Assembly: GCA_022520065.1 (NCBI GenBank)
Contig: GCA_022520065.1_3942.1
From: a phage
DNA: 64,000 nt
Direction: 5' to 3' (one strand)
Shown here: positions 16,916-64,000 of the stretch, in pieces
How positions within the stretch are numbered: position 1 is the first letter of the stretch
Layout of the letters: each line of letters begins with the position of its first letter
Translations under genes and position numbers: made by a program
Notes under the pieces: generated by a model
Told to the model about the DNA's origin: nothing
What the model saw: only the letters and a program-made list of their open reading frames with translations
Database searches by the model: none

Positions 16916-24934
<8,019 letters not shown>

Positions 24935-24936
24935 TA

Positions 24937-26109
24937 ATGGCAGTAGGTGAAATTCAAATTAGTGCCTTGCCTCAAGCATCCTTACCAATTGACCTTAGTG
25001 ATATCTTCCATCTTAAGCAGGGTATTGAGGATAAGAGGTGTACTCTTGAGCAATTACTTGCTCCACACGCAAGCCTAAGAAATAACCCTCATGGTGTTAC
25101 TAAAACACAAATTGGTTTAGATAATGTTATTAATGCTCTTCAGTTAGTCGCTGCAAATAACTTATCAGATATTGTTAATGTAGCTGAGGCAAGAGCAAAT
25201 CTACAGATTATGTCTTCAGAAGAGGTTAATAACCTTGTCCAGCAACATATCAAGGACAAGAGTAACCCACACAATACAACTAAGGCACAGGTTGGTTTAA
25301 GTAATGTTCAGAACTGGACAACATCTAATCTGTATAACGAAGATGCAGATAAGTATGCTACAGCAAGAGCAGTAAATAACTTGTACAAGGCTGTTCAGGC
25401 TTCTTATCCAGTAGGTGCTATCCATCTTTCTATGAACTCTGCAAACCCTTCCACATACTTAATTTGTGGAGGTACTTGGGAGTTAGTTTCAAAAGGCAGG
25501 GCATTGGTTGGCTATGACTCTGATACAAGACCAGCAGGTTCTGTATTTGGCGCTTCAACTGTCACTTTGTCAGTTAATAACATGCCTCAGCACTCCCACT
25601 CTGTGTCTCTTAGCGGTGGTGGTCACACTCATAATGCAACTGTGTCAATTTCAGCTTTTGATTATGGGACTAAGACTACAAACTCTTTTGACTATGGGAC
25701 AAAAGCTACTAACACAACTGGTAACCATACACACAGTGTGTCAGGTAACACTAGCACCAATGGTACTCACAACCATGATGTGTATCCTAGAGAAAATGAT
25801 GGCACTGGTAATGCTGTGGCTGACTCTGATGGTGGTGGTGCAAGAAGGACATCAAGGACTTCTAGTGATGGTGCGCACTCACACAGCTTTAACGTCACAT
25901 CTGGTGCATCAGGTGACCACAGCCACACGGTTGGTATTGGTGCTCACAGTCATACAGTTGGTATTGGTTCACATACGCATAGTGGCACTGTAACAGTTTC
26001 TTCTTCTGAACATACACATAGTGGCAATACAAATAGTGTTGGTGGAGGTCAGGCAGTTAATATTGAACAGCCATCCTTCGTACTGTATGTATGGCAGAGA
26101 ACAGCTTAA
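24937..26109 (+). CDS. tail fiber protein with His-rich (HxH) C-terminal tip
   Basis: Repeated H-x-H motifs (GHTHNAT, GNHTHSVSG, GAHSHTVGIG) and FDYGTK repeats; C-terminus shared with next gene. Confidence 0.7.
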   Translation: MAVGEIQISALPQASLPIDLSDIFHLKQGIEDKRCTLEQLLAPHASLRNNPHGVTKTQIGLDNVINALQLVAANNLSDIVNVAEARANLQIMSSEEVNNLVQQHIKDKSNPHNTTKAQVGLSNVQNWTTSNLYNEDADKYATARAVNNLYKAVQASYPVGAIHLSMNSANPSTYLICGGTWELVSKGRALVGYDSDTRPAGSVFGASTVTLSVNNMPQHSHSVSLSGGGHTHNATVSISAFDYGTKTTNSFDYGTKATNTTGNHTHSVSGNTSTNGTHNHDVYPRENDGTGNAVADSDGGGARRTSRTSSDGAHSHSFNVTSGASGDHSHTVGIGAHSHTVGIGSHTHSGTVTVSSSEHTHSGNTNSVGGGQAVNIEQPSFVLYVWQRTA

Positions 26110-26119
26110 TTTCTTTACA

Positions 26120-26140
26120 GGGGCTTTATAGCCCCTTTTA
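26120..26140 (+). terminator. Rho-independent terminator after first tail fiber gene
   Basis: Hairpin ggggc-tttata-gcccc followed by tttt. Confidence 0.55.
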
Positions 26141-26155
26141 AGAGGAAAATTTATA

Positions 26156-28510
26156 ATGGCAGATTACAAATTGAGTGAGCTAAACTCAATCGACACAATC
26201 CGTTCAGATGACCTTCTTCATGTCAGAGTTAAAAAGAGACCTGAAATGCTGGGTGATGAAGACCGTCGAATGACCTATCAAGATTTCTTAGCATCTTTTA
26301 AGCTTGAAAGATTTGTTCAGATTGCTGGTAGCACTATGACGGGTGACTTAGGAATTGTTAAGCTACTTTACGGTGGCAAGGCTGTATTCGACCCCACAGG
26401 CTCTTCTGAGATTACTGTTGGTGATGTTTTAAAGACTTTTAAAATCAACGCAAACGGCCTTAAACTAACTATTGCAGACGCTTCAAGGTCGGCAACTGTT
26501 TATCATACTTTGAATAAGCCAAGCCCTAATGAACTTGGGATGAGAACTAATGAAGAGAATGACGCAAGGTATGCAAGACTAGCCGTGAATAATACCTTTA
26601 GAGGTACTCAAGCTATCCTCTCTGACAATGAAGCGCTCATTATTAAAAATATCACTCAAGGTGCTCCACTCTATCTTCGTGGTCAAGATGCAGATGGTAC
26701 TAACAGATGGTATCTAGGTAATGATAATAGGGGTACAAATAATCTTGTATTGAAGAATGTAAAGTCTGACGTTTCAATTGCTATTTTAGAGAATTTGGTG
26801 ACAGTCAACAGAACTCTTCAAATTGCTGGCCAAGTTCAGCCTTCAAGTTTTGCTAACTTAGATGCTAGGTATTTTACCCAGACAGCAGCTAATCAGAGAT
26901 TTGCGCAGTTAGCTGGCAATAATACATTTAGTGGTTCTAATATTTTCACTAATTTTGTTATTAAGAAGAATGCTAATGCTATTACTATTCAAAATGTAGA
27001 TACAACTGCGGCTTTGTATATCCAAGCAAGGAAATCAGATGGAGCTAATAAGTGGTACATTGGTAATGATGGTGATGAAAACATTGTAAACATCTATAAC
27101 TATTTAGCAAAAACACAAATCTCATTAGGTAACACCATTACCATGAGCAGAACAGTCCAAATTGGTGGTCAAGTACAACCTTCTGATTGGACTAACATTG
27201 ATTCTAGATATATTCCGGCAGCCACTTTGAGTAATCTCCCTAAACTTAATGTGTCTAATACTTTTACAAATGTGCAAACTATTGTATCTAACAACGAGGG
27301 TTTGGTATTAAGGAACTTGACACAGGGGCAGCCACTATATATCCGTGGTGTTGATACTGAGAATGTTTCTAGATGGTGGTTAGGTGTAGGTGGTCCAAAC
27401 TCTAATGTGGTAACACTTAACAACAACTATTCTGACACTAAAATCTCACTTGGTGGCTCATCAGTAATGACTAATAAGAGCTTAGCTATTACTGGTCAAG
27501 TACAACCTTCTGACTTCTCTAACTTAGATGCTAGATACTATACCCAAGCTGCCGCAAACGCAAGATATATGCTTGCAAGCATCACTGGTTCGGCTTCTGA
27601 AGCAGATGGTGGTGATGGTGTTGCATGGGATGCAAAAACAGGTCTTTATAAGGTTACTAACACCACTGGACAGTCTTCTTCACTTGTATATCACATGTTT
27701 TTAGGGACTAGTTCTACACCATCTGCACAATTAAAGTTTTCGTTTAAAAATGGTGGGATGTGGTATAGAACATCAAGAGATGCCTATGGCTTCGAAGTTA
27801 ATTGGTCTAAAGTTTACACGGAAGCACAAAAACCAACCCCTTCAGAGATTGGTGCATACACTAAAGCTGAAACTGACCAGAAAATTGCAACAGCAATTAG
27901 TGACTCTACAGACCTTAACAAAATCTATCCAGTTGGTATTGTAACGTGGTTTAACAGTAATGTTAACCCTAATACAGCACTCCCTGGTCTAACTTGGACG
28001 TACCTGAATAATGGTGTTGGTAGAACTATCAGAATCGCAGCAGCAAACGGTTCAGATGTTGCTACAACTGGTGGTTCAGATTCTGTGACATTAGCTGTTG
28101 GTAACTTACCATCACACACTCACAGTTTCTCTGCTACCACTTCATCTTTTGATTATGGTACGAAGAACACTAACAGTACTGGTGCACATACCCATTCAGT
28201 TAGTGGTACTGCTGCATCTGCTGGGCAACACGCACACAGAATTTCACAGGGTGACAACGCTAACGTTTCATCAGGTAGAGTCGCATCTTCAAACTCTGCT
28301 CAGACCCATGTTGGTTGGACTGAAAATGATGGTGTTCACACCCACTCAGTTAGTGGTACTGCTGCATCTGCTGGTGGACATGCTCACTCTGTAGGTATTG
28401 GTGCTCATAGCCACACAGTTAGTGGTAACACTGGTGGTACAGGTTCTGGTTCAGCATTTAGTGTTACTAACCAGTTCTACAAGTTAATGGCTTGGGTAAG
28501 AACTGCTTAA
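26156..28510 (+). CDS. long tail fiber protein with internal repeats and His-rich C-terminal tip
   Basis: 784 aa; three internal repeats containing GQVQPS...NLDARY; C-terminal FDYGTKNTNSTGAHTHSVSG module homologous to previous gene. Confidence 0.75.
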   Translation: MADYKLSELNSIDTIRSDDLLHVRVKKRPEMLGDEDRRMTYQDFLASFKLERFVQIAGSTMTGDLGIVKLLYGGKAVFDPTGSSEITVGDVLKTFKINANGLKLTIADASRSATVYHTLNKPSPNELGMRTNEENDARYARLAVNNTFRGTQAILSDNEALIIKNITQGAPLYLRGQDADGTNRWYLGNDNRGTNNLVLKNVKSDVSIAILENLVTVNRTLQIAGQVQPSSFANLDARYFTQTAANQRFAQLAGNNTFSGSNIFTNFVIKKNANAITIQNVDTTAALYIQARKSDGANKWYIGNDGDENIVNIYNYLAKTQISLGNTITMSRTVQIGGQVQPSDWTNIDSRYIPAATLSNLPKLNVSNTFTNVQTIVSNNEGLVLRNLTQGQPLYIRGVDTENVSRWWLGVGGPNSNVVTLNNNYSDTKISLGGSSVMTNKSLAITGQVQPSDFSNLDARYYTQAAANARYMLASITGSASEADGGDGVAWDAKTGLYKVTNTTGQSSSLVYHMFLGTSSTPSAQLKFSFKNGGMWYRTSRDAYGFEVNWSKVYTEAQKPTPSEIGAYTKAETDQKIATAISDSTDLNKIYPVGIVTWFNSNVNPNTALPGLTWTYLNNGVGRTIRIAAANGSDVATTGGSDSVTLAVGNLPSHTHSFSATTSSFDYGTKNTNSTGAHTHSVSGTAASAGQHAHRISQGDNANVSSGRVASSNSAQTHVGWTENDGVHTHSVSGTAASAGGHAHSVGIGAHSHTVSGNTGGTGSGSAFSVTNQFYKLMAWVRTA

Positions 28511-28517
28511 TCCCTTG

Positions 28518-28575
28518 TTGACTGATTGTTAAGATGGTGTTAATATTCTTTATGGGTATTCTCACCATCTTGGCT
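28518..28575 (+). promoter_or_regulatory. Promoter TTGACT-N17-TAATAT with flanking 9-bp inverted repeat (operator-like)
   Basis: -35 at 28518-28523, -10 at 28541-28546; aagatggtg (28531-28539) and caccatctt (28567-28575) are inverted repeats. Confidence 0.45.
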
Positions 28576-28589
28576 GATGAGGTGATTAA

Positions 28590-28787
28590 ATGCCTACAAT
28601 CCTAGCAATTCTTCTAAAAAATCTAGGTAGCTTCTTCTGGAAACTCATTTTATCCCTTCTAAGTGAATACATGATTGAGAAAGTGTTCTTTAAGCTTGCA
28701 AGATACCTTGCGAGTAAAACAGACACACCTATTGATGATGAGTTCGTAGATAACTTAGAAAAAGCTTTTAAGGGGGAGAATAAATGA
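28590..28787 (+). CDS. hypothetical small protein with hydrophobic N-terminus
   Basis: 65 aa, downstream of promoter 28518-28546. Confidence 0.4.
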   Translation: MPTILAILLKNLGSFFWKLILSLLSEYMIEKVFFKLARYLASKTDTPIDDEFVDNLEKAFKGENK

Positions 28788-29155
28788 AGTGGCTAGAGGA
28801 AGCTTTTAAAAATAATATTGGTGCAATTGTAGTTGGTATTTTTAGTGTTATTGGGATGTATACCACCATGCAAGTTTCGGATGGTAAGCAAGAAGTGTCT
28901 GTCACAACAAAGTTACAGCAGCTAGATAATTACAGCAAAGCTAATTACTCAGCTATTCGTGATTTACAGTCTGACATGAGACTGATTCAGCTAGGGATGG
29001 AGAACCAGAAAGTTCAGTTAGAGAATGTTAAGGGCGAGAACGCAAAACTTACTAAAACCCTTGATAAATTCTCTGACAGCGTGAACAATCTGGCTCAATC
29101 AGTATCAGCCTTGCAAGCTATTACTGAAAAGAACACAAAGAATACTGAAAAATAA
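28784..29155 (+). CDS. hypothetical membrane-anchored coiled-coil protein
   Basis: N-terminal TM helix IGAIVVGIFSVIGMYTT then coiled coil; spanin- or holin-like architecture is speculative. Confidence 0.45.
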   Translation: MKWLEEAFKNNIGAIVVGIFSVIGMYTTMQVSDGKQEVSVTTKLQQLDNYSKANYSAIRDLQSDMRLIQLGMENQKVQLENVKGENAKLTKTLDKFSDSVNNLAQSVSALQAITEKNTKNTEK

Positions 29156-29160
29156 AATTT

Positions 29161-29189
29161 AAGGCTCCTTTTTTACGGGAGCCTTTTTT
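29161..29189 (+). terminator. Terminator at the convergence of plus-strand structural genes and minus-strand thyA
   Basis: Hairpin aaggctcc...ggagcctt followed by tttttt; sits between convergent genes. Confidence 0.6.
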
Positions 29190-29193
29190 GTTT

Positions 29194-30093
29194 TTACTTG
29201 CCTACTGACAGAGGTGCTTCAATCTTTCCTGCATGTTGGTAGTTGTTAATGCCACCAATAAAATCACTTGCAGTAAGATGTTTCAGGTCACTTAAAGTAT
29301 TAAGTGGTAGACCAATCTCAAAAGTTGGTGCATGGAACTCTTCATTGTTCAGTAGTTCATAAACCTGTTTCATGTGGTTCTGATAAATCTGAGTATCTCC
29401 AAAGACACCTATCAAGTACCGTGGAGTGTGTCCAGTCATCTTACAAAGAACTTCCAGAATAAAACCATAAGATGCAATATTAAACGGGAGTCCTAAAAAG
29501 GTGTCTACTGAACGCTGATACCATTGTAAGTCAACTTCACCCTCGTTAGTGATATAAATCTGAAACAGAACATGACAAGGTGCTAAAGCCATTGAGTTTG
29601 CTGCAATATCTGCTGCATTCCAAGCATTAACAAGCATGTAACGGTCTGTGATATCACCCTTCATCTTCGTTACTAAGGTCTCTAGTTGGTCTACAACACA
29701 ACCATTATGACCTTCAAAGTTTCTCCACTGAACCCCATAAATCCTTCCACCTGCATCATCTAACCAATCTTGTTCAGAAGAATAATTAGAGCTTAACCAG
29801 CGTTTAAAATCATCTGACCAGATAGTCCAGCGTTCTCCGTCATTTTCACCCCAAGTACGGTAACGAAGTTCGCCCAACTTATTCTCGCCATTCAGGAACC
29901 ATAAAGCTTCCCCAATAACTTGCCGTGTAAACACCTGTTTAGATGTTAAGAGCGGGAAACCAGTTCGCATATCAAAACGAAACTGAGGTGGAGCAAATGC
30001 AGATATAACATCTCCAGTTCGTGTAGTACGCAGTTCACCAACGGATAAAACATGGTTCAGGATATTTTTGTAACTTGTATCTGCTTGTGACAT
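29194..30093 (-). CDS. thyA: thymidylate synthase
   Basis: ThyA signature motifs including active-site region ALAPCHVLFQIYI and RTGDVISAFAPPQFRFDM. Confidence 0.9.
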   Translation of the reverse strand: MSQADTSYKNILNHVLSVGELRTTRTGDVISAFAPPQFRFDMRTGFPLLTSKQVFTRQVIGEALWFLNGENKLGELRYRTWGENDGERWTIWSDDFKRWLSSNYSSEQDWLDDAGGRIYGVQWRNFEGHNGCVVDQLETLVTKMKGDITDRYMLVNAWNAADIAANSMALAPCHVLFQIYITNEGEVDLQWYQRSVDTFLGLPFNIASYGFILEVLCKMTGHTPRYLIGVFGDTQIYQNHMKQVYELLNNEEFHAPTFEIGLPLNTLSDLKHLTASDFIGGINNYQHAGKIEAPLSVGK

Positions 30094-30094
30094 A

Positions 30095-30640
30095 TCAAAA
30101 GTGTCCTTTCACTTGTGGAACATAAATTTCAAAAGTTGCTTTACCATCCTCTGATGGTTTTGACTGTACCTTTGTAAATACACGGTTATCATACAGCTTC
30201 TCAAAGAAGTTTTCAAAAGGTAAATGCACAGTGGCCTCTTCAGTAACTTTATGGAAAACTGTATGGAAAACTACACCAGCATATGGTAAAGCATTGACAA
30301 GGACACCTGCACCACCAATTACAAAGACATCTTCATCAATAGAGCTATCAAGATAGTTCAAAAATGCTCCAAAGGATTCTTTACTGGCCTTAGCATACAT
30401 TACCTCATCTTTGCCAAAATCTATACCTAAGTATGGTACAGAATTTGTTAAGATGAGGTTTGCACGTTCTGGTAAAGGTTTACTACCCAGAGTCTTGAAA
30501 GTCTCATTCCCCATCACTACTAAGTTGTTTTTAGTAAGTCTCTTAAACTCTTGCATATCCTGTTTATGTCGAGGCCACGGCATACCAGTTGGAGTACCAA
30601 ACTCACCATTTTCACCACTTGCAAAGATTAATTTAATCAT
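30095..30640 (-). CDS. folA: dihydrofolate reductase
   Basis: N-terminal DHFR motif MIKLIFASGENGEFGTPTGMPW; adjacent to thyA. Confidence 0.85.
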   Translation of the reverse strand: MIKLIFASGENGEFGTPTGMPWPRHKQDMQEFKRLTKNNLVVMGNETFKTLGSKPLPERANLILTNSVPYLGIDFGKDEVMYAKASKESFGAFLNYLDSSIDEDVFVIGGAGVLVNALPYAGVVFHTVFHKVTEEATVHLPFENFFEKLYDNRVFTKVQSKPSEDGKATFEIYVPQVKGHF

Positions 30641-30897
30641 TTTGTAAACCCTTTCTTAATGAACCAGTTGATAACATTTTTCACAGCTTTATTGCTATGG
30701 TAGATTAAGTGTGGTGCTGGTTGGTATGAACCATAAGCCCAGAAAGCAATAATTTCACTACACCCTGTACACCTTGTACTCTCTTCAGCAATATGACCGT
30801 TGACTATTTCACTTACCTCACCTTGTAAGTCTGTACACCCACAATGTGGACAACGGATAGGTGCTCCATCAGACTCATAGCAGTGTTCAATTTTCAT
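30637..30897 (-). CDS. hypothetical zinc-ribbon protein
   Basis: CPHCGC ... CTGC cysteine pairs. Confidence 0.45.
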   Translation of the reverse strand: MKIEHCYESDGAPIRCPHCGCTDLQGEVSEIVNGHIAEESTRCTGCSEIIAFWAYGSYQPAPHLIYHSNKAVKNVINWFIKKGFTK

Positions 30898-31413
30898 CTA
30901 TTTAACCTCAAAAACTGGCTCAAGAACCAATATAAAGTCTACACAGTCATCTTCTTCATCAAGAATACCATCAAAGTTCTTAGGAACGAAGTCGAAGAGA
31001 CTCATAGAGTAGCGGTTAGAAGTAATCCTGATAGTTCCTCCGATATTCTCTACAGTTAATATTGTACGGCTTTCTGTTACCTCACTAAGAAGATTACTCA
31101 CAAAGTCATCTAAGAAGTGCTTCATCAGTGACTTAAAACCTTTAGGGTAATCTGTACCAGAGTATGTTTCAATCTGAGGTACAAGCTTAACATTTATACT
31201 AGTCTTTGTTAAGAATGTGTTAGAGAACATACTATCAGGTAACTTGCAAACAGTCTTTCCAGTACCTTCATGCTCAATCTCAACAAAACCAGCTTCGTCG
31301 CCACATGTGACTATTTTAAAAGATGCTTCATTCTCATACTGTGAAGCCATAAACTTTTTAAGCATCTCTTTAAGGAAATCTGCATGAGCATCTTGTAAGT
31401 AGATATCAATCAT
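30898..31413 (-). CDS. hypothetical protein
   Basis: 171-aa ORF in minus-strand operon. Confidence 0.45.
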   Translation of the reverse strand: MIDIYLQDAHADFLKEMLKKFMASQYENEASFKIVTCGDEAGFVEIEHEGTGKTVCKLPDSMFSNTFLTKTSINVKLVPQIETYSGTDYPKGFKSLMKHFLDDFVSNLLSEVTESRTILTVENIGGTIRITSNRYSMSLFDFVPKNFDGILDEEDDCVDFILVLEPVFEVK

Positions 31414-31426
31414 AGTTAATCACCTA

Positions 31427-31786
31427 TTATGGGAACAAACACTTAATGTCGTCGTTTTTGAAAACGAAGCTTGTGTAGTTGTGACCGTCAACATCCAGCC
31501 AAACAGCCTGAACATCTACACCATCAAGATTGTGGTAAAGTTCTTTGATGAAGTGGTCTTTCACAATCTGGCTGCTAGTTGTCTCCAGCTTAATGTTTGA
31601 GATTGCTGAACCTACAGCCATATAACCCATGACACGTTTCTTCTCAGTGTGCTTAATCTTACCATCTTTGTAAGCCATAATGAGATTGGAAAGAATCTTC
31701 ACACCATAATACTTTTCAAGGTGAGTAGGTACACCATAAAAGCCTAATGCAAAGTTTTCAGAGTGGATAATGTTTTCACGTTTCAT
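31427..31786 (-). CDS. hypothetical protein
   Basis: 119-aa ORF. Confidence 0.45.
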   Translation of the reverse strand: MKRENIIHSENFALGFYGVPTHLEKYYGVKILSNLIMAYKDGKIKHTEKKRVMGYMAVGSAISNIKLETTSSQIVKDHFIKELYHNLDGVDVQAVWLDVDGHNYTSFVFKNDDIKCLFP

Positions 31787-31787
31787 A

Positions 31788-32087
31788 TTAATCTGCCAAC
31801 CTTAAATTAAAATTTACACCAAATTTTTCGCATACTTCCAACATATACTCAAGCGAGACATTACCAGTAAGGTGGATTATGTTGGACACACGAGCCTGAG
31901 AGATACCACAAATTTTAGCAACTTGCTCTTGAGAAAGACCTCTGGATTTAATCTCTCTCTTAAAACGATGTGCAACGAAGTCTCTCATTTCGTCTACATC
32001 CATTGGACAAATATAACTCTCCATTTCAGCCTCTCTGTCAGCCTCCCAATCATCTTGTGGAGCATAAGGGTCAAAAACCTCATTCAT
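31788..32087 (-). CDS. helix-turn-helix DNA-binding protein (XRE/Cro-like)
   Basis: HTH-like segment LSQEQVAKICGISQARVSNIIH; start moved to ATG 32087 to reduce overlap. Confidence 0.45.
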   Translation of the reverse strand: MNEVFDPYAPQDDWEADREAEMESYICPMDVDEMRDFVAHRFKREIKSRGLSQEQVAKICGISQARVSNIIHLTGNVSLEYMLEVCEKFGVNFNLRLAD

Positions 32088-32292
32088 CTTTCTTCTTCCG
32101 TTTGCGTGAAGTGTCAATCAATGAATCTATGTTTGTAGCCCTAACCTTTTCACGTTCATCGTTAAGATAATCATCAAGAGCCTTTTCAATCTGTGAATCA
32201 TCTTGACAGATAACTGTAAAGACTGTAAAGCCGTCTGTATCGTCAATTATCTTACCATAACCGCCTCTGGGATGTAACTTTTTAAGAGCCAT
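32080..32292 (-). CDS. hypothetical protein
   Basis: 70-aa ORF, Lys-rich C-terminus. Confidence 0.35.
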   Translation of the reverse strand: MALKKLHPRGGYGKIIDDTDGFTVFTVICQDDSQIEKALDDYLNDEREKVRATNIDSLIDTSRKRKKKDE

Positions 32293-32293
32293 A

Positions 32294-32677
32294 TCAAATA
32301 CCTGTGCAGCTTCTGTTTTCTAAGAAATATTCAACACCGTACATAGCTTTTTGCATCAAATCTTCTTTAAACTGGATACGGTGGTTGAGCATCGCCTGTA
32401 CATCAATATCGTCATGGTGTTTCTCTTTAATGTTTGCAGATTGCAGGAAATACTCTGCAAGAACACGATACTGGTAGTCAGTCACCTTATCAGTCATCTC
32501 TGTCAAAGACTCTTCAGAGATGGGTTTAAGTAACTCACCATTAGCTAGAGCAACACCTTTTACAATCTGGCAAGTGTCTACTGGAACACCTGATAAATCC
32601 ACATTTGGAAGTTCTGTTGCATTAACTGGTAAATTCATTGCCATAACCATTGCAGCAGCTAATAAAACCTTTTTCAT
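32294..32677 (-). CDS. secreted/periplasmic protein with signal peptide
   Basis: N-terminal MKKVLLAAAMVMAMNLPVNA signal-peptide-like sequence. Confidence 0.5.
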   Translation of the reverse strand: MKKVLLAAAMVMAMNLPVNATELPNVDLSGVPVDTCQIVKGVALANGELLKPISEESLTEMTDKVTDYQYRVLAEYFLQSANIKEKHHDDIDVQAMLNHRIQFKEDLMQKAMYGVEYFLENRSCTGI

Positions 32678-32721
32678 AATGACCTCAAAGTTATATTAAA
32701 TTTTGTATTACATTGAGTATA

Positions 32722-32768
32722 AAAATAAGCTATAACACCTGACTTGTCAACAGATTTTATAGCTTATT
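32722..32768. promoter_or_regulatory. 13-bp perfect inverted repeat flanking a TTGACA-like hexamer (operator- or origin-like)
   Basis: aaataagctataa (32722-32734) and ttatagcttattt (32756-32768) separated by 21 nt. Confidence 0.4.
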
Positions 32769-32796
32769 TGGCAGATTTTTTATAAGGCTACTGCCA

Positions 32797-32865
32797 TCCT
32801 TCCATACCCTACCTTACCACACCCAACCATACCTAACCAAACTACACCATACAATACCTTATTAA
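32797..32865. repeat. Degenerate pentamer repeat array (CCNWA)n, G-rich on the minus strand
   Basis: About 12 tandem units ccata/cccta/cctta/ccaca/cccaa ...; second less regular C/A-rich block near 32923-32999. Confidence 0.5.
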
Positions 32866-33246
32866 AAGACCCTCTTAAAGACCTTTTAAAAAGGTAAGTC
32901 TCATTTTAATGTAGCTGAGACTAACTACCCATACATTACCGCACCATATTATACCCTACCCCACCATACTTCACTGCACCGAGCCACGCATTACATCACT
33001 TAAAAACCCTTTTCAAAGACTCTTAAGTGATGCTGGTGAGTACCCGTTGGTTTATGATGCTCAGTATACTCACCAAATTTTCTATGTCAACAACTTTTAT
33101 AAAAAAGTTCTGATAGCTATATGCGTCACGAAACAAAAGATTGTAAACAAGACACCCATTGCAAAAGATGTGTCCAAAAGCTTACTTGCAACGTATGACA
33201 ATACAAAGACAACCAGTATAAATAGAATGACTGTACTGAACATAGT

Positions 33247-51566: not shown

Positions 51567-51808
51567 TGACTTATGTAATTTACTCCAAAACTGGATGCCC
51601 TCAGTGTGAGACTGCAAAGAATTTTGCAAAAGCTCGTGGTATTGACCATGTTGTGAGAATGTTAGGGCAGGATTATGAACTGTCAGACCTGATGGATATT
51701 GCACAGATGCCAGTTCGTCAGATGCCATTCATCATGAAGACTGATGGTCAAAATCTAAAACCTGTTGGGACGCTACAGAATTTTATGGCAGAGGTGAATA
51801 ATGCTTAA
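51566..51808 (+). CDS. glutaredoxin-like protein (NrdH-like)
   Basis: CPQC redox motif in SKTGCPQCETAK; ATGA-coupled to nrdB. Confidence 0.75.
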   Translation: MTYVIYSKTGCPQCETAKNFAKARGIDHVVRMLGQDYELSDLMDIAQMPVRQMPFIMKTDGQNLKPVGTLQNFMAEVNNA

Positions 51809-52007
51809 ACGCCTTTGGGAAGGTTTGGTTGTTGATGCACCAGCCATTGTGATTGGTATGCTTGTTGTTAACCTATTTACTGATTTTGAACAAGGTTCAT
51901 TGTTTGGAGCCATGCTATTATGGGTTATCTTTGAAATATTAGAGATACAGCTAGGCATCACTGAAAAACTAAGAAAACTCGTTTCAAAGTTTTCTAAAAA
52001 GATTTAA
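51801..52007 (+). CDS. hypothetical small membrane protein
   Basis: 68 aa with two hydrophobic segments. Confidence 0.4.
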   Translation: MLKRLWEGLVVDAPAIVIGMLVVNLFTDFEQGSLFGAMLLWVIFEILEIQLGITEKLRKLVSKFSKKI

Positions 52008-54200: not shown

Positions 54201-54353
54201 AACTTGACATGGTGGTGTGAGTCTTGATAGGCTTACATCACCTTTTTATTGGATGTTAGATATGGCAGAGAATATTATTGGGTTGTTCATAGGTTCTGTC
54301 TTACTAGGGTTCTTTTTAGGACTCTCTTATTGTGAATTAAGGGGCAAGTTAAA

Positions 54354-54554
54354 ATGTTTAAAATATCAAAAGCGTTGATATACATACTCCATATTCTAGT
54401 CTTCTTCTTTGGGGTTAGTGTTATGGTATGGGGTTTTTCAGACCCACAATGGGGTTTCTCATATCATGGTCAGATGGATTTATGGTCATGCTTCAAACCA
54501 TTTTTAGGGTTAGTCATAGCATTCAGTGCATTACCAACTAAGGTGAAATTATGA
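54354..54554 (+). CDS. hypothetical small membrane protein
   Basis: 66 aa, hydrophobic. Confidence 0.4.
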   Translation: MFKISKALIYILHILVFFFGVSVMVWGFSDPQWGFSYHGQMDLWSCFKPFLGLVIAFSALPTKVKL

Positions 54555-60034: not shown

Positions 60035-60370
60035 ATGAAAATCAAAGAGATGAACATCAACATTGTCTTAGAAGAACGTTGGGAGAACATCAATAAGCCT
60101 GAAGATGGCCATAAGTTTCTTAACAAAATTTTAGTAGCAGCTAAAGAAGAACTGACTGGCAAGGTCGCAGCAGCAATTACAATAAAGGTCTGCGTAAAAG
60201 GTCTTCCAGACAATCACCAATTTGCGCTTGACGAGTTTAAAAAAAGCTTCTACAATCCAAACAAACAGATACTTGAAAGTAACTTTGCAGTATCTACAAG
60301 TATCGTCCATGACAGAAGCTTTATCCTTTACAAGAATATGAGAGGTGAGTCATGCAAGCATATTGGATAG
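60035..60370 (+). CDS. hypothetical protein
   Basis: 111-aa ORF. Confidence 0.4.
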   Translation: MKIKEMNINIVLEERWENINKPEDGHKFLNKILVAAKEELTGKVAAAITIKVCVKGLPDNHQFALDEFKKSFYNPNKQILESNFAVSTSIVHDRSFILYKNMRGESCKHIG

Positions 60371-60528
60371 AAATTTTACTGTCACTTGGTAGTGTAGCAG
60401 TATTTGTTTACCTCCTTTGTAAGTACTTTGCAGAGCACAAAAAATGTGACTACTGTAATGGAGAGGGGTACATAAGGGCAGGATGTTGCCCTATGTGTGG
60501 TGGTTCTGGTAAAATGTTTAACAAGTAA
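60352..60528 (+). CDS. hypothetical small membrane-anchored zinc-ribbon protein (58 aa)
   Basis: Short ORF read manually: hydrophobic N-terminus then CDYCNGEG ... CPMCGGSG. Confidence 0.35.
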   Translation: MQAYWIEILLSLGSVAVFVYLLCKYFAEHKKCDYCNGEGYIRAGCCPMCGGSGKMFNK

Positions 60529-60556: not shown

Positions 60557-62923
60557 ATGCGCATGGTAAACGACCACGCAGAAGTGATTAAGAGTTCAAC
60601 TTCTTTAGAGACGTCTCAAGCACAGATTACAATGACACCTGAAATGTTCAGCCTTTTGAGTTCTGGTGTATATACCTTTAAAGAAAGGGCAGTGATTCGT
60701 GAACTGTCATGTAACGCAGTAGATGCTCAGAAAGAGGCTGGAAAAGAGAACATCCCGTTCCATGTGCATTTACCTACTCGTTTTGAGCCTTACTTTGAAG
60801 TTCGTGATTTTGGAACTGGATTGACTCATGATAAAGTTATGAGTTTGTACCTAAACTATGGGGCTTCTACGAAGAATGACTCTAATGACTACATTGGTGC
60901 AATGGGTATCGGCTCAAAATCACCATTTGCAATTGCTCAGTCATTCACAGTGTCTAGCTATGTTGACGGTGTTGTTAATAAGTACTCTGTTTATCTTGAG
61001 AATGGTATCCCTCAAGTAACTAAGCTGACCACTAACCCAACAAAAGAACCTAATGGTTTAGCTGTACGTGTGGCAGTTGCTGACCACCGTATTTCAAAGT
61101 TCTTTGAAGAGGCTGGTAATGTATACTCATACTTTGCTGTAAAACCAGAGAGTAATGTGGAGTATAATGATATATTAGCAGATATGGATGTGATTGCTCG
61201 TGAAGAAGGTGTCTATGATGCCATGACTCATAAGCATAGCTGGCGTTCAAGCAGCAATAGAACAGAGTTTAACGTGGTTATGGGTAATATTGCCTACCCA
61301 GTTAATATGGAGGCATTACTTGGTGATGATTTCTTCAAAGTATTACCAGAATTTTTCCGCAGGAGCATAGACCTTGTAAACATCTACATGCCTATTGGTT
61401 CAGTTGCTATTGCAGCTTCTCGTGAAGCATTGCAGATGAATGACACGACAAAAAATGTTATCATCGAGGCTACTAAAAAGATAACTGAAGCAATTACAAA
61501 GGATGTTATCAAGAAAGTTAATAGTCAACCTACACTCATGGATGCTGCACAGGCTTATGCTGAGTTACGCTTGAACTCACGAGAGATGTTTAATGTTGTG
61601 TGTCCAAAGCTAGAGTGGGGAGGTGTTAAGCTTGATTCTCTGGAAGAAGAATTACTAAACATTCGTCGTGGAATTATCTACGCAGAAGACGGCTCAGTCA
61701 TTTACGAACGTGACGGTAAAGGTAATATTAAGGTTGATAGGAACGGGAACAATATCCCTAAAGTAGATTATCTTTATGACCCAGTTGCTTATGTCAAGTT
61801 CAACTCTTTAGAGAGTAAGATTCGTGCAACATCGCTTTCCTACACTCAAGAGGCAAGTATGTTCAATATCTTTGGCGCAATGCGTAAAAGCCAAATTGAA
61901 CAGTTTTTGTTTGTTATAAATGACCGTCGCAATAAAAACGGTACTGAGAAGACTGTAGGACGCAATCAAATCTTGCGTGGTGCATGTCGAGACTATGCCA
62001 GTGAGTCGAACCTGTTTCACAGATACAATGGTATTGTCTTTGTATTCTCGACTGAAAAAGAGCTAGATGACTTAATCAATCTACACAAACTTGATAAAAG
62101 CTTGTTAAAGATTGTGAAGATGTCTGATAAGGAACACCATTATCAGCGTAAAGAAGCTGTAAGAGGTGTTGTAAAACTCTGGAAAGCTGTTCCAGCAGAA
62201 GGTGTAGCTTCCTATAAAGAGGTTTCAGAGGACTTTGATACAATTGAAGAGCCTCAACTTTATATCAAGGCAGTAGGCGACACTGTTGATGGCGAATGTT
62301 TTTGCTCATCTCCAGAAGATGTAGCTAAGTCAGTTGCCAATGTCATTGGGAAGACAGTCTATGTTTTCCGAAAAGCAAATTGGAAAAAGATACCAGAAGA
62401 CTGGATTGAAGTAGATGAGAAACTCTTGAACGACAGTTTAACTGATGTTCATTGGATTAATCATAACAGGTATATGACACGTATCTATATGAATGGTGTC
62501 CTTGACCTTACAAGCAGTTGGATTATTGCCAGAAACTTTACGTTCAATAACAGGAAGATTTCTCGTGGCTATTGTTATTCACGGGATACAAACAAAACTA
62601 TCTTCTTAGAAGGTAATGAAGATGCTGTAGAGGCAATGTTTGGTAAAATCCAATACGTTGCTGCACCGTTTGCATATACTTACACTATTAGTAGGTTGCA
62701 AACTTTGAAAGACTGCCTTGACAATGATACAAAGCTGTACAAGAAAATTAAGAAAGCTGGTGACCGCATGGTCATTAAGGTGACAAACTACCTTTCAAAA
62801 AGAAAACAAGAAAACTTCTTGCTTTCTCATTTAGATTGGAATAAAGTGTCACCCATCGAAGTGAGTAAGTTCTTAGGCTTTGATGTGAAGTGTGTTCCAG
62901 AAGGGACTACAATTTACGATTAA
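60557..62923 (+). CDS. rIIA: rIIA-like protein with N-terminal GHKL-type ATPase domain
   Basis: Bergerat-fold motifs RELSCNAVDA, VRDFGTGL, GAMGIGSKSPFA; 788 aa; assignment to rIIA is from memory of T4 rIIA. Confidence 0.55.
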   Translation: MRMVNDHAEVIKSSTSLETSQAQITMTPEMFSLLSSGVYTFKERAVIRELSCNAVDAQKEAGKENIPFHVHLPTRFEPYFEVRDFGTGLTHDKVMSLYLNYGASTKNDSNDYIGAMGIGSKSPFAIAQSFTVSSYVDGVVNKYSVYLENGIPQVTKLTTNPTKEPNGLAVRVAVADHRISKFFEEAGNVYSYFAVKPESNVEYNDILADMDVIAREEGVYDAMTHKHSWRSSSNRTEFNVVMGNIAYPVNMEALLGDDFFKVLPEFFRRSIDLVNIYMPIGSVAIAASREALQMNDTTKNVIIEATKKITEAITKDVIKKVNSQPTLMDAAQAYAELRLNSREMFNVVCPKLEWGGVKLDSLEEELLNIRRGIIYAEDGSVIYERDGKGNIKVDRNGNNIPKVDYLYDPVAYVKFNSLESKIRATSLSYTQEASMFNIFGAMRKSQIEQFLFVINDRRNKNGTEKTVGRNQILRGACRDYASESNLFHRYNGIVFVFSTEKELDDLINLHKLDKSLLKIVKMSDKEHHYQRKEAVRGVVKLWKAVPAEGVASYKEVSEDFDTIEEPQLYIKAVGDTVDGECFCSSPEDVAKSVANVIGKTVYVFRKANWKKIPEDWIEVDEKLLNDSLTDVHWINHNRYMTRIYMNGVLDLTSSWIIARNFTFNNRKISRGYCYSRDTNKTIFLEGNEDAVEAMFGKIQYVAAPFAYTYTISRLQTLKDCLDNDTKLYKKIKKAGDRMVIKVTNYLSKRKQENFLLSHLDWNKVSPIEVSKFLGFDVKCVPEGTTIYD

Positions 62924-62928
62924 AGTGT

Positions 62929-62958
62929 TTGACAAGGGGCTTTGAAGCCCCTTAGAAT
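62929..62958 (+). promoter_or_regulatory. Promoter TTGACA-N18-TAGAAT with GC hairpin in spacer, downstream of the rIIA-like gene
   Basis: -35 at 62929-62934, hairpin ggggc-tttgaa-gcccc at 62936-62951, -10 TAGAAT at 62953-62958. Confidence 0.4.
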
Positions 62959-63003
62959 AGCCTTACAAAATGATTTATTAACTAACAAGAGAGAGTAATA
63001 AGA

Positions 63004-64000
63004 TGACTACTAAAACTAAAGCACAGATTGACGCAGAAATTTACGAACTGGTTAAAGAAGGTAAGCTGACTAAAACAGCTATTGCACAGAAGTTCAATAC
63101 CTCAACCCGTTCAGTTGGTCGTGCTGTAGAGCGTCATGAAGCAACCTTAAAAGGGAATAAGAAGGCAACTGCTGCACCAGCTACGAAGACTTTGAAACAA
63201 GTTGCTAAGACTTTTAAAAAGAAAGCTGGCAAACCAGTTGAAAAGGTTGTTAAAGATGCTGTACAGAAAGCTCCAGTAAATAAACTGCATGAAGCTATGC
63301 AGAAAGATGACAAGATTGAGTACATGATTACTGGCGACTCTGTAATTATGACTTACGGTTCAGAGTCTGAAATTGTTGAATCTACTCATCCGAACTATCA
63401 AGAGATTGTAGTTCATGTTGTGAAAGGTGAGTTTAAGAAAGCCTTTGAACTGATGAACATTCGTAAGTCTATCGAAAACTTCACTCAGGGTGCTATCACA
63501 ATCAAAGGTGACAAACTATTCTACGGTGCTGTTGAGATGCGTTCTACTCTGGTTGACCGTATTCTTCACATGATGAAGACTGGAGATAAAGGTTTTGAAC
63601 GCCTTGTAATGTTCTTTGAAAAACTGATGGAAAACCCATCTAAAGATTCTGTAGAACAACTTTGGGGCTTCGTATCTCACCTTGATGTTGAAATTGATGA
63701 AGAAGGTTACATCATCGGTTGGAAGAAAGTCTCTACTCGTGAAGGCAAGCTGGTTGACTCTCACACCTACAAAGTACCTAATGATTTGGGTAACATTGTA
63801 GAAATGCCACGTTGGATGGTTGATAATAACCGTAACGTAACTTGCTCTCAAGGTCTTCATGTTGGTGCTTGGGATTACGTTCGTTGCTTCTCAGGTGATA
63901 CAATCCTGAAGGTTCGTGTCCATCCACGAGATGTTGTATCTGTTCCAACTGATTACAACGATATGAAGATGCGCTCATCCCGTTATGAAGTTGCAGCAAT
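63004..64000 (+). CDS. rIIB: rIIB-like protein (partial, 3' end beyond window)
   Basis: Open frame from ATG 63004 to window end; follows rIIA-like gene; N-terminal HTH-like segment; identity by synteny only. Confidence 0.35.

Follow-up and report, generated by a model that had tools for sequence, protein, structure and literature searches.

A probable membrane-side lysis cassette and its conserved leader RNA downstream of the tail-fibre genes of a Felix O1-like phage

Abstract

Two small overlapping genes that follow the tail-fibre genes of this Felix O1-like myovirus probably constitute the membrane-side lysis cassette with which its late structural unit closes. Under this explanation, which we favour as a whole while holding it open to revision, the product of the second gene, ORF-B, would accumulate in the inner membrane and open holes in it at a set time. 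These holes would admit a soluble, distantly encoded lysozyme to the cell wall, and the product of the first gene, ORF-A, together with a separately encoded two-component spanin, would help to destroy the outer membrane. A conserved sigma-70 promoter with an extended -10 element, situated in the 79-nt leader, would permit transcription independent of the tail genes. RNA that reads through from the tail-fibre gene is predicted to fold into a long hairpin, the outer helix of which pairs the stop codon region with the ribosome-binding site of ORF-A; this helix might keep translation of two potentially lethal proteins low, or tie it to the ribosomes that are finishing the tail-fibre gene. ORF-B would be translationally coupled to ORF-A via an ATGA overlap, and a bidirectional terminator would end the unit.

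Genomic setting

The window, by which we mean the whole 64,000-nucleotide stretch that was analysed, belongs to Felixounavirus. In the region of the two genes the identity to VpaE1-type Felixounavirus DNA is 96.6%, with matches in 255 phage records, and proteins 100% identical to ORF-A and to ORF-B are present in the public databases. The features of the region are:

26156..28510, plus strand: distal tail-fibre gene, 784 aa (phrog_4277 tail fiber, E = 0; Pfam gp37_trimer and gp37_C)
28505..28593, plus strand: predicted three-tier RNA hairpin (minimum free energy -33.2 kcal/mol, z = -5.7)
28518..28546, plus strand: predicted sigma-70-type promoter (-35 TTGACT at 28518-28523, 17-nt spacer, TG at 28538-28539, -10 TAATAT at 28541-28546)
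28590..28787, plus strand: ORF-A, 65 aa, Felix O1 gp78 (PF26925, phrog_402; GAGG Shine-Dalgarno at 28579-28582, 7 nt upstream)
28784..29155, plus strand: ORF-B, 123 aa, Felix O1 gp79, candidate holin (phrog_4038)
29161..29195, both strands: bidirectional intrinsic terminator, a hairpin with a T-run, common to the cassette and the convergent thyA
29194-30093, minus strand: thyA, convergent, sharing its terminator with the ORF-A/ORF-B cassette

The structural genes upstream of the cassette end with the tail-fibre gene, whose stop codon (28508-28510) falls within the outer RNA helix. Both open reading frames and the terminator are present in the sequence just where a preliminary description of the region had placed them, and the start of ORF-B overlaps the stop of ORF-A by ATGA. 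The terminator behind ORF-B corresponds to t79 and t80 in the Felix O1 listing and is annotated on both strands in the ASO1A record.

This gene order, namely the last tail gene, ORF-A, ORF-B, the terminator, and convergent thyA and frd, is kept across the Ounavirinae, including Mooglevirus, Suspvirus, Kolesnikvirus (phiEa21-4) and Hafnia phages. In the distant members the identity of the ORF-A and ORF-B proteins drops to 26-49%, with the stop/start overlap retained. As a separate observation on the upstream genes, both tail-fibre proteins (24937-28510) possess C-terminal His-rich repeats of the GxHxHxV type, with matches to Pfam Phage_fiber, gp37_trimer and Gp10_C; these repeats resemble the metal-binding repeats of T4 gp37 and gp12.

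ORF-A, a homolog of the PM2 lysis factor P18

The homology of ORF-A to P18 (gp l) of phage PM2 is established by profile comparison. In a single-target test the profile of the ORF-A family (26 members) matches PM2 gp l (P18, 51 aa) over the conserved core with 32 bits and E = 4e-12, and PF26925 (Phage_PM2_Gpl) is precomputed on proteins 98% identical to ORF-A. This identity was already known, because a P18 homolog of Felix O1 was reported in 2007, along with those of RB49, PaP3 and several cyanophages (PMC1950889). [quoted passage not shown] The PHROGs family that contains ORF-A, phrog_402, has no assigned function, and no match was obtained in NCBIfam or in a local Pfam set that lacked the PF26925 model.

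An exhaustive HMMER search yielded 19 representative clusters of the family at 50% identity, all of 58-78 aa and with no fusions among them; tblastn with two metagenomic members uncovered no further cultured lineages. The family is characterized by a conserved core, FFxLAxxxAxxTxTxxDD, and D49 and D50 are invariant, with E26, F34 and T44 nearly so. The AlphaFold model of ORF-A has three predicted helices. The hydrophobic N-terminus noted earlier for this protein is borne out by a Kyte-Doolittle 19-residue mean of 1.56, though the first helix is amphipathic and contains two lysines; two basic positions in it are conserved. Foldseek comparison of the AlphaFold models of ORF-A and ORF-B with BFVD gave no match at E <= 0.001, and searches of PDB sequences with both proteins returned generic coiled coils or noise only. 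An MscS-like reading of the TxTxxDD motif was dropped, as nothing was found in its support.

Gene context in the P18 family agrees with a lysis role, with the exception of Lahexavirus and Grimontviridae, in which the P18-like gene has tail genes, and no lysis gene, as neighbours. In four lineages P18-like genes are found directly behind endolysin genes; the upstream neighbour is a GH108 endolysin in L018, a Phage_lysozyme in L019 and L021 (a Shewanella prophage and a phage contig of 43 kb), and a VanY-type peptidase in a Vibrio phage. In the RB49-like phage JSE the P18-like gene directly precedes a true T holin gene (PF11031, E = 1.6e-60), in PM2 gene l directly follows the holin gene k, and throughout the Ounavirinae the P18-like gene directly precedes ORF-B.

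ORF-B, a candidate holin

By analogy with these arrangements ORF-B is most likely the holin, and it is a natural candidate for this role because a P18-like gene adjoins a proven holin type both in PM2 (k) and in RB49-type phages (t). It has the shape of a holin, being small, with at least one transmembrane domain (TMD), a charged C-terminus and a gene of a lysis family (P18-like) directly upstream. A short N-terminus leads into a single TMD at approximately residues 11-29 (Kyte-Doolittle mean 1.62), which is rich in Gly, Ala and Ser (41% G/A/S/T), and residues 40-122 form an 83-residue coiled coil of unbroken heptads. The hydrophobic fraction is 0.71 at the a/d positions versus 0.35 overall, a value reached by 2 of 5000 shuffles, and the AlphaFold model consists of a helix at 2-31, a floppy linker and a single helix at 40-122. 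The single transmembrane helix and coiled coil of the preliminary description are thus upheld, with the qualification that the TMD is marginal. The bias of the charges flanking the TMD only mildly favours N-in, and ORF-B is probably a single-pass inner-membrane protein with an N-in/C-out topology.

In the Felix O1 genome paper (Whichard 2010) gp79, which is ORF-B and whose terminator t79 lies directly behind ORF190, is one of five holin candidates, and the ORF-B type has been described as a 'class III holin, 1 TMD, N-in C-out' (PMC4392139). Curated Felix O1-like genomes, such as that of Mordin, the curators of which have expertise in lysis, label it as a (putative) holin; the designation has been carried over into many later records, and many other records have "hypothetical". 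Our literature search found no experimental test of ORF-A or ORF-B for any Felix O1-like phage. Neither gp78 nor gp79 was found in the Felix O1 virion proteome, so that a role as virion components, which the preliminary description had set against its own reading, is not borne out.

Several findings count against a holin: the marginal TMD, the coiled coil of about 12 nm, which is not a known holin feature, and the odd maximum of ORF 79 transcription at 5 min. ORF-B displays no similarity to any holin family, to PM2 P17 or to the i-spanin of the phage group, and it has no match to the gpt family PF11031 at E <= 0.1 in a search in which the control, the T protein of JSE, is recovered with the E-value given above. 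Its PHROGs family has no assigned function, and NCBIfam provides only sub-threshold coiled-coil matches. A weak match to DivIC, at 19.7 bits, is below the cut-off of 28.9.

We also considered ORF-B as an i-spanin, the layout of which it fits, and rejected this candidate. It fails the defining test of an i-spanin, because it has no conserved partner lipoprotein ORF: an LLGC segment in an alternative frame occurs only in the window and in Felix O1, being absent in Mordin, SflM004, PC79-13 and SarahDanielle, and the spanin pair of the group is encoded elsewhere. The preliminary description, which had been reminded of holin/spanin-type lysis proteins, was right in kind, ORF-A being a P18 homolog and ORF-B an annotated holin, but the roles that it suggested, with the small protein as holin and the transmembrane and coiled-coil protein as spanin, are probably reversed. 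In phiEa21-4 (gp74; L010, 3210-3545) and PMBT37 (L009, 2995-3330) the ORF-B homologs have a basic N-terminus and a lipobox-like IVGC at residues 15-18, and to judge from these residues they might be lipoproteins, unlike the Felixounavirus protein.

Remaining lysis genes and other small membrane proteins

It had been pointed out that no endolysin is adjacent to the pair, and indeed no lysozyme or spanin homolog is present within the 64 kb. The dispersal of lysis genes over the genomes of Felix O1-like phages accounts for this, and the endolysin and spanin genes are expected beyond the window. In Mordin the lysozyme is found at 23.2 kb, the spanins at 5.4-5.9 kb and the ORF-B homolog at 56.6 kb, which places the lysozyme and the spanins approximately 33 kb and 51 kb, respectively, from the latter. 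The overlapped spanin pair of the phage group (JH2 family) is elsewhere in the genome, and a phage that has such a pair would not obviously require a P18-like factor, a point against the favoured explanation. At its right end (60557-63998) the window contains rIIA (60557-62920) and the first part of rIIB, and in relatives the spanin pair comes within about the next 3 kb, just beyond the window.

The window also encodes other small membrane proteins, which come closer than ORF-B to a classical holin. A 68-aa protein at 51801-52007 on the plus strand (phrog_4532), with two strong TMDs and a charged C-terminus, has the classical shape of a class II holin. Further small membrane proteins are encoded on the plus strand at 54217-54378, 54354-54554 and 60352-60528; two of the small membrane proteins belong to 'membrane protein' PHROGs, and another, of 58 aa, combines a TMD with a zinc-ribbon tail of the form CxxC...CxxC. 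The whole set probably corresponds to the remaining holin candidates of Felix O1, and these proteins are located among nucleotide-metabolism genes, away from lysis genes.

Comparison with known lysis systems

One of the closest parallels is with genes k and l of PM2 (Corticoviridae), which encode P17 and P18 (Krupovic, Daugelavicius and Bamford 2007), with l homologous to ORF-A. In both phages two small overlapping genes end a late structural operon, and in P17, as in ORF-B, a charged helix comes after the N-terminal TMD. In contrast, the order in PM2 is k then l, whereas here the l-like gene precedes ORF-B; ORF-B is 70 residues longer than P17 and lacks sequence similarity to it; and ORF-A is 14 residues longer than P18, with the profile match suggesting that the extra part is mostly N-terminal. 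PM2 has no spanin and was described as lacking a recognisable endolysin and relying on host enzymes, although a subsequent study identifies P5 as a predicted endolysin, whereas the Felix O1-like phage possesses a lysozyme and a spanin pair.

RB49 and JSE have the succession gp37, a P18-like gene and t, and so agree with this locus in position: the last tail-fibre gene, a P18-like gene, and the gene of a single-pass membrane protein whose bulk lies past the TMD. T4-type phages resemble the present one in their scattered lysis genes and the presence of rIIA and rIIB. ORF-B differs from T4 gpt in having no PF11031 match, in its length (123 aa versus 218 aa) and in its continuous coiled coil in place of a globular C-terminal domain. 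In phiKZ, gp142 (a class IIIb holin) is likewise a non-gpt single-TMD holin encoded beside a small lysis modulator, gp143; however, the large domain of gp142 is cytoplasmic, gp143 is a soluble, two-domain protein (PMC12894885), neither is homologous to ORF-A or ORF-B, and the phiKZ cassette is a compact one that includes endolysin and spanins. The N-terminal TMD and probably periplasmic coiled coil of ORF-B reproduce the i-spanin layout of the lambda Rz/Rz1-type spanins, but without a conserved embedded or adjacent lipoprotein partner.

A bolder proposal has several parts: that ORF-B represents a third kind of single-TMD holin, distinct from gpt and phiKZ gp142 and with a periplasmic coiled coil of about 12 nm; that the P18-like protein is a portable partner exchanged, along with whichever holin is resident, between corticoviruses, RB49-like T-evens and Felix O1-like phages; and that an RNA clamp ties the amount of the lysis proteins to the completion of tail-fibre translation. 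We advance this combination tentatively and consider it unlikely.

The promoter and the leader RNA

The TTGACT-N17-TAATAT promoter noted in the preliminary description is present at 28518-28546, and a TG before the TAATAT adds an extended -10 element (TGn); transcription is predicted to start near 28553-28555. The evidence for this promoter is its conservation, since the hexamers alone are not above chance level: a scan of 24000-33000 gave 21 promoter-like sites versus 26 expected, and for the stricter pattern TTGACW-N16-18-TAWWWT there are 3 occurrences in the 64 kb where 1.24 would be expected, a count equalled or exceeded in 10 of 100 shuffles. The -35 element, the TGn-10 element and both arms of the inverted repeat are invariant in eight phages, while the bases between them vary. 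These phages comprise four lineages, namely Felixounavirus, Mooglevirus, Suspvirus and the genus-unassigned vB_SflM_004. The GACT of the -35 element and the first T of the -10 element are unpaired in the RNA fold and yet invariant across all four, which argues that the promoter is conserved in its own right.

Expression data for Felix O1 bear on the same issue. By RT-PCR, the transcripts of ORFs 78 and 79 precede those of tail genes 76 and 77, a timing compatible with a separate promoter, noisy as the data are. ORF 79 is maximal at 5 min; the table is unreliable, because the major capsid gene 58 is also placed at 5 min. Our literature search for this phage group brought up neither transcriptomes nor mapped start sites. 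On our reading the promoter looks real, and it lies within an RNA element by which translation would be damped or coupled.

The arms AAGATGGTG (28531-28539) and CACCATCTT (28563-28571) form a perfect 9-bp inverted repeat that flanks the -10 hexamer and the expected start, with 23 bp between them. The repeat, reported earlier as bracketing the -10 region, is thus real, and it is larger than first noted: a middle stem of 12 bp (28528-28539 with 28563-28574) contains the 9-bp repeat and encloses an inner stem of 7 bp (28542-28548 with 28554-28560), and in a longer RNA there is a third, outer helix, in which 28505-28520, the stop codon region, pairs with 28575-28593, the Shine-Dalgarno and AUG region of ORF-A. 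The full three-tier hairpin is possible only in read-through transcripts from the tail-fibre gene; the middle and inner stems without the outer helix have a centroid energy of -23.7 kcal/mol (z = -4.2). The Mordin equivalent of the three-tier fold is predicted at -36.2 kcal/mol (z = -5.4), and that of PC79-13 is weaker.

Across the alignment the 19 pairs of the inner and middle stems are paired in 99% of cells, versus 35-57% in slid controls. One compensatory change is seen, at the pair that closes the inner stem: Felixounavirus has C-G here, and the remaining three lineages have U-A. Changes in the outer helix are one-sided with pairing kept. The observed covariation score was reached by 26 of 500 shuffles, so that support from covariation is modest. 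At a level of at least 95% identity the 79-nt leader is conserved in 212 of 258 records (82%), compared with 140 of 257 (54%) for the last 79 nt of the tail-fibre gene and 214 of 241 (89%) for the first 79 nt of ORF-A.

Three distant relatives, phiEa21-4, PMBT37 and SarahDanielle, have unrelated leader hairpins that are canonical, carry a T-run and are true terminators, and in all three the layout is alike in that an anti-Shine-Dalgarno stretch upstream of the hairpin pairs with the ribosome-binding region of ORF-A. We also observed that a TTGACA-N17-TACCTT promoter-like site is situated upstream of the terminator hairpin in phiEa21-4 (L010, 2897-2925) and PMBT37 (L009, 2682-2710); its '-10' is the anti-Shine-Dalgarno stretch itself, so that promoter, terminator and occlusion of the Shine-Dalgarno would overlap in one leader. 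No description of this conserved leader RNA was found in the literature search.

Alternative explanations

Two other readings of the leader have to be weighed against a promoter embedded in an RNA element. The preliminary description regarded the inverted repeat as an operator, and a dimeric repressor bound to both 9-bp arms might, in the course of infection, turn the promoter off or on. In favour of this, the arms show perfect symmetry and invariance, their midpoint falls on the predicted start, and their centres are separated by about three helical turns; a Cro/C1-type helix-turn-helix (HTH) protein is encoded at 31788-32117, and a second promoter-like site, at 32722-32769, also lies within a long inverted repeat. 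However, the 23-bp gap is unusual and no regulator has been linked to the repeat. An operator is moreover unlikely because the inverted pair of 9-mers is found nowhere else in the 64 kb, other exact copies of the 9-mer being single, on the plus strand and unpaired. It would also leave unexplained the pairing beyond the arms, i.e. the 12-bp stem, the 7-bp inner stem with its compensatory change of C-G to T-A and the outer helix, as well as the unrelated hairpin with the same layout in distant relatives. The operator, which we consider decidedly improbable, is hence the least supported option for the leader, and the repeat is, on the pattern of pairing, more likely the core of a conserved RNA hairpin. 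Alternatively, the promoter might be unused, with the hairpin serving as a weak terminator or as a stabiliser of the 3' end of the tail-fibre mRNA, and ORF-A and ORF-B being expressed by late read-through only. The ASO1A record annotates the hairpin as a terminator; phiEa21-4, PMBT37 and SarahDanielle have a hairpin with a T-run at this place, the last without a promoter-like site; and the hexamer match on its own is no better than chance. In the window, however, no T-run follows the hairpin (28528-28574) and a terminator scan makes no call, so that it lacks what defines an intrinsic terminator. The invariance of the unpaired GACT and first T of the -10 element in four lineages, while their neighbours vary, and the RT-PCR timing of 78/79, which differs from that of 76/77, also speak against an unused promoter, and we judge this reading unlikely.

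As to the proteins, the cassette could be lysis-related without ORF-B being its holin, another small membrane protein, such as that at 51801-52007, performing this role. ORF-B would then be an accessory, either an antiholin-like timer (a SAR-type one was considered) or an anchor or partner for the P18-like protein. There are several candidates of classical holin shape, as reflected in the five named in the Felix O1 paper, and ORF-B has a weak TMD with many Gly, Ala and Ser residues, as well as a long coiled coil unlike known holins. Furthermore, the established class III holins are all gpt homologs except phiKZ gp142 (PMC12894885), and ORF-B is not one. Against this, the P18-like gene stands beside a proven holin type in PM2 and RB49-type phages, and the rival candidates sit among nucleotide-metabolism genes without lysis neighbours; we regard the alternative as unlikely. 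Far less probable, in our estimation, is a pair unrelated to lysis with an early membrane function, e.g. superinfection exclusion or interference with the envelope or division. Such a function would accord with the FtsB/DivIC-like layout of ORF-B and its weak DivIC match, and with the 5-min maximum of ORF 79 and the sigma-70-type promoter. Yet the same RT-PCR table puts the capsid gene at 5 min, PADLOC gave no meaningful match to a defence system, and ORF-A is homologous to a proven lysis factor of a family that repeatedly adjoins endolysin and holin genes.

Implications for annotation and minor observations

Both genes were already known, the P18 link having been published in 2007 and since become a Pfam family, and ORF-B being widely annotated as a holin. 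They are nearly unchanged in about 260 sequenced phages and have little value as a discovery. The practical value of the analysis lies in annotation, since ORF-A is mostly called "hypothetical", and at times is shortened or misnamed. Many GenBank records start it at an internal ATG, giving a product of 37 or 38 aa (L001, 2169-2285; L002, 2172-2285; L003, 2088-2282), and one names the homolog a 'putative L-fuculose phosphate aldolase'; the full 65-aa frame and its Shine-Dalgarno are conserved from Felix O1 to phiEa21-4. Felix O1-like phages are a much-used therapeutic and typing group, of which ORF-B is the candidate holin, and they illustrate that phages with spanins nonetheless keep a P18-like factor.

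A region further downstream may be of interest from a regulatory standpoint. The second promoter-like site, with TTGACA, at 32722-32769 on the minus strand is contained in an inverted repeat with 19-nt arms, AAATAAGCTATAAAATCTG and CAGGTGTTATAGCTTATTT, and lies upstream of a minus-strand ORF (ATG at 32676) with a signal-peptide-like start. It adjoins a long G/T-rich stretch (32790-32990) of repeated motifs resembling GGTATGG and GGTAGGG, and the whole (32722-32990), which is near the HTH gene, could be a regulatory or replication-origin region.
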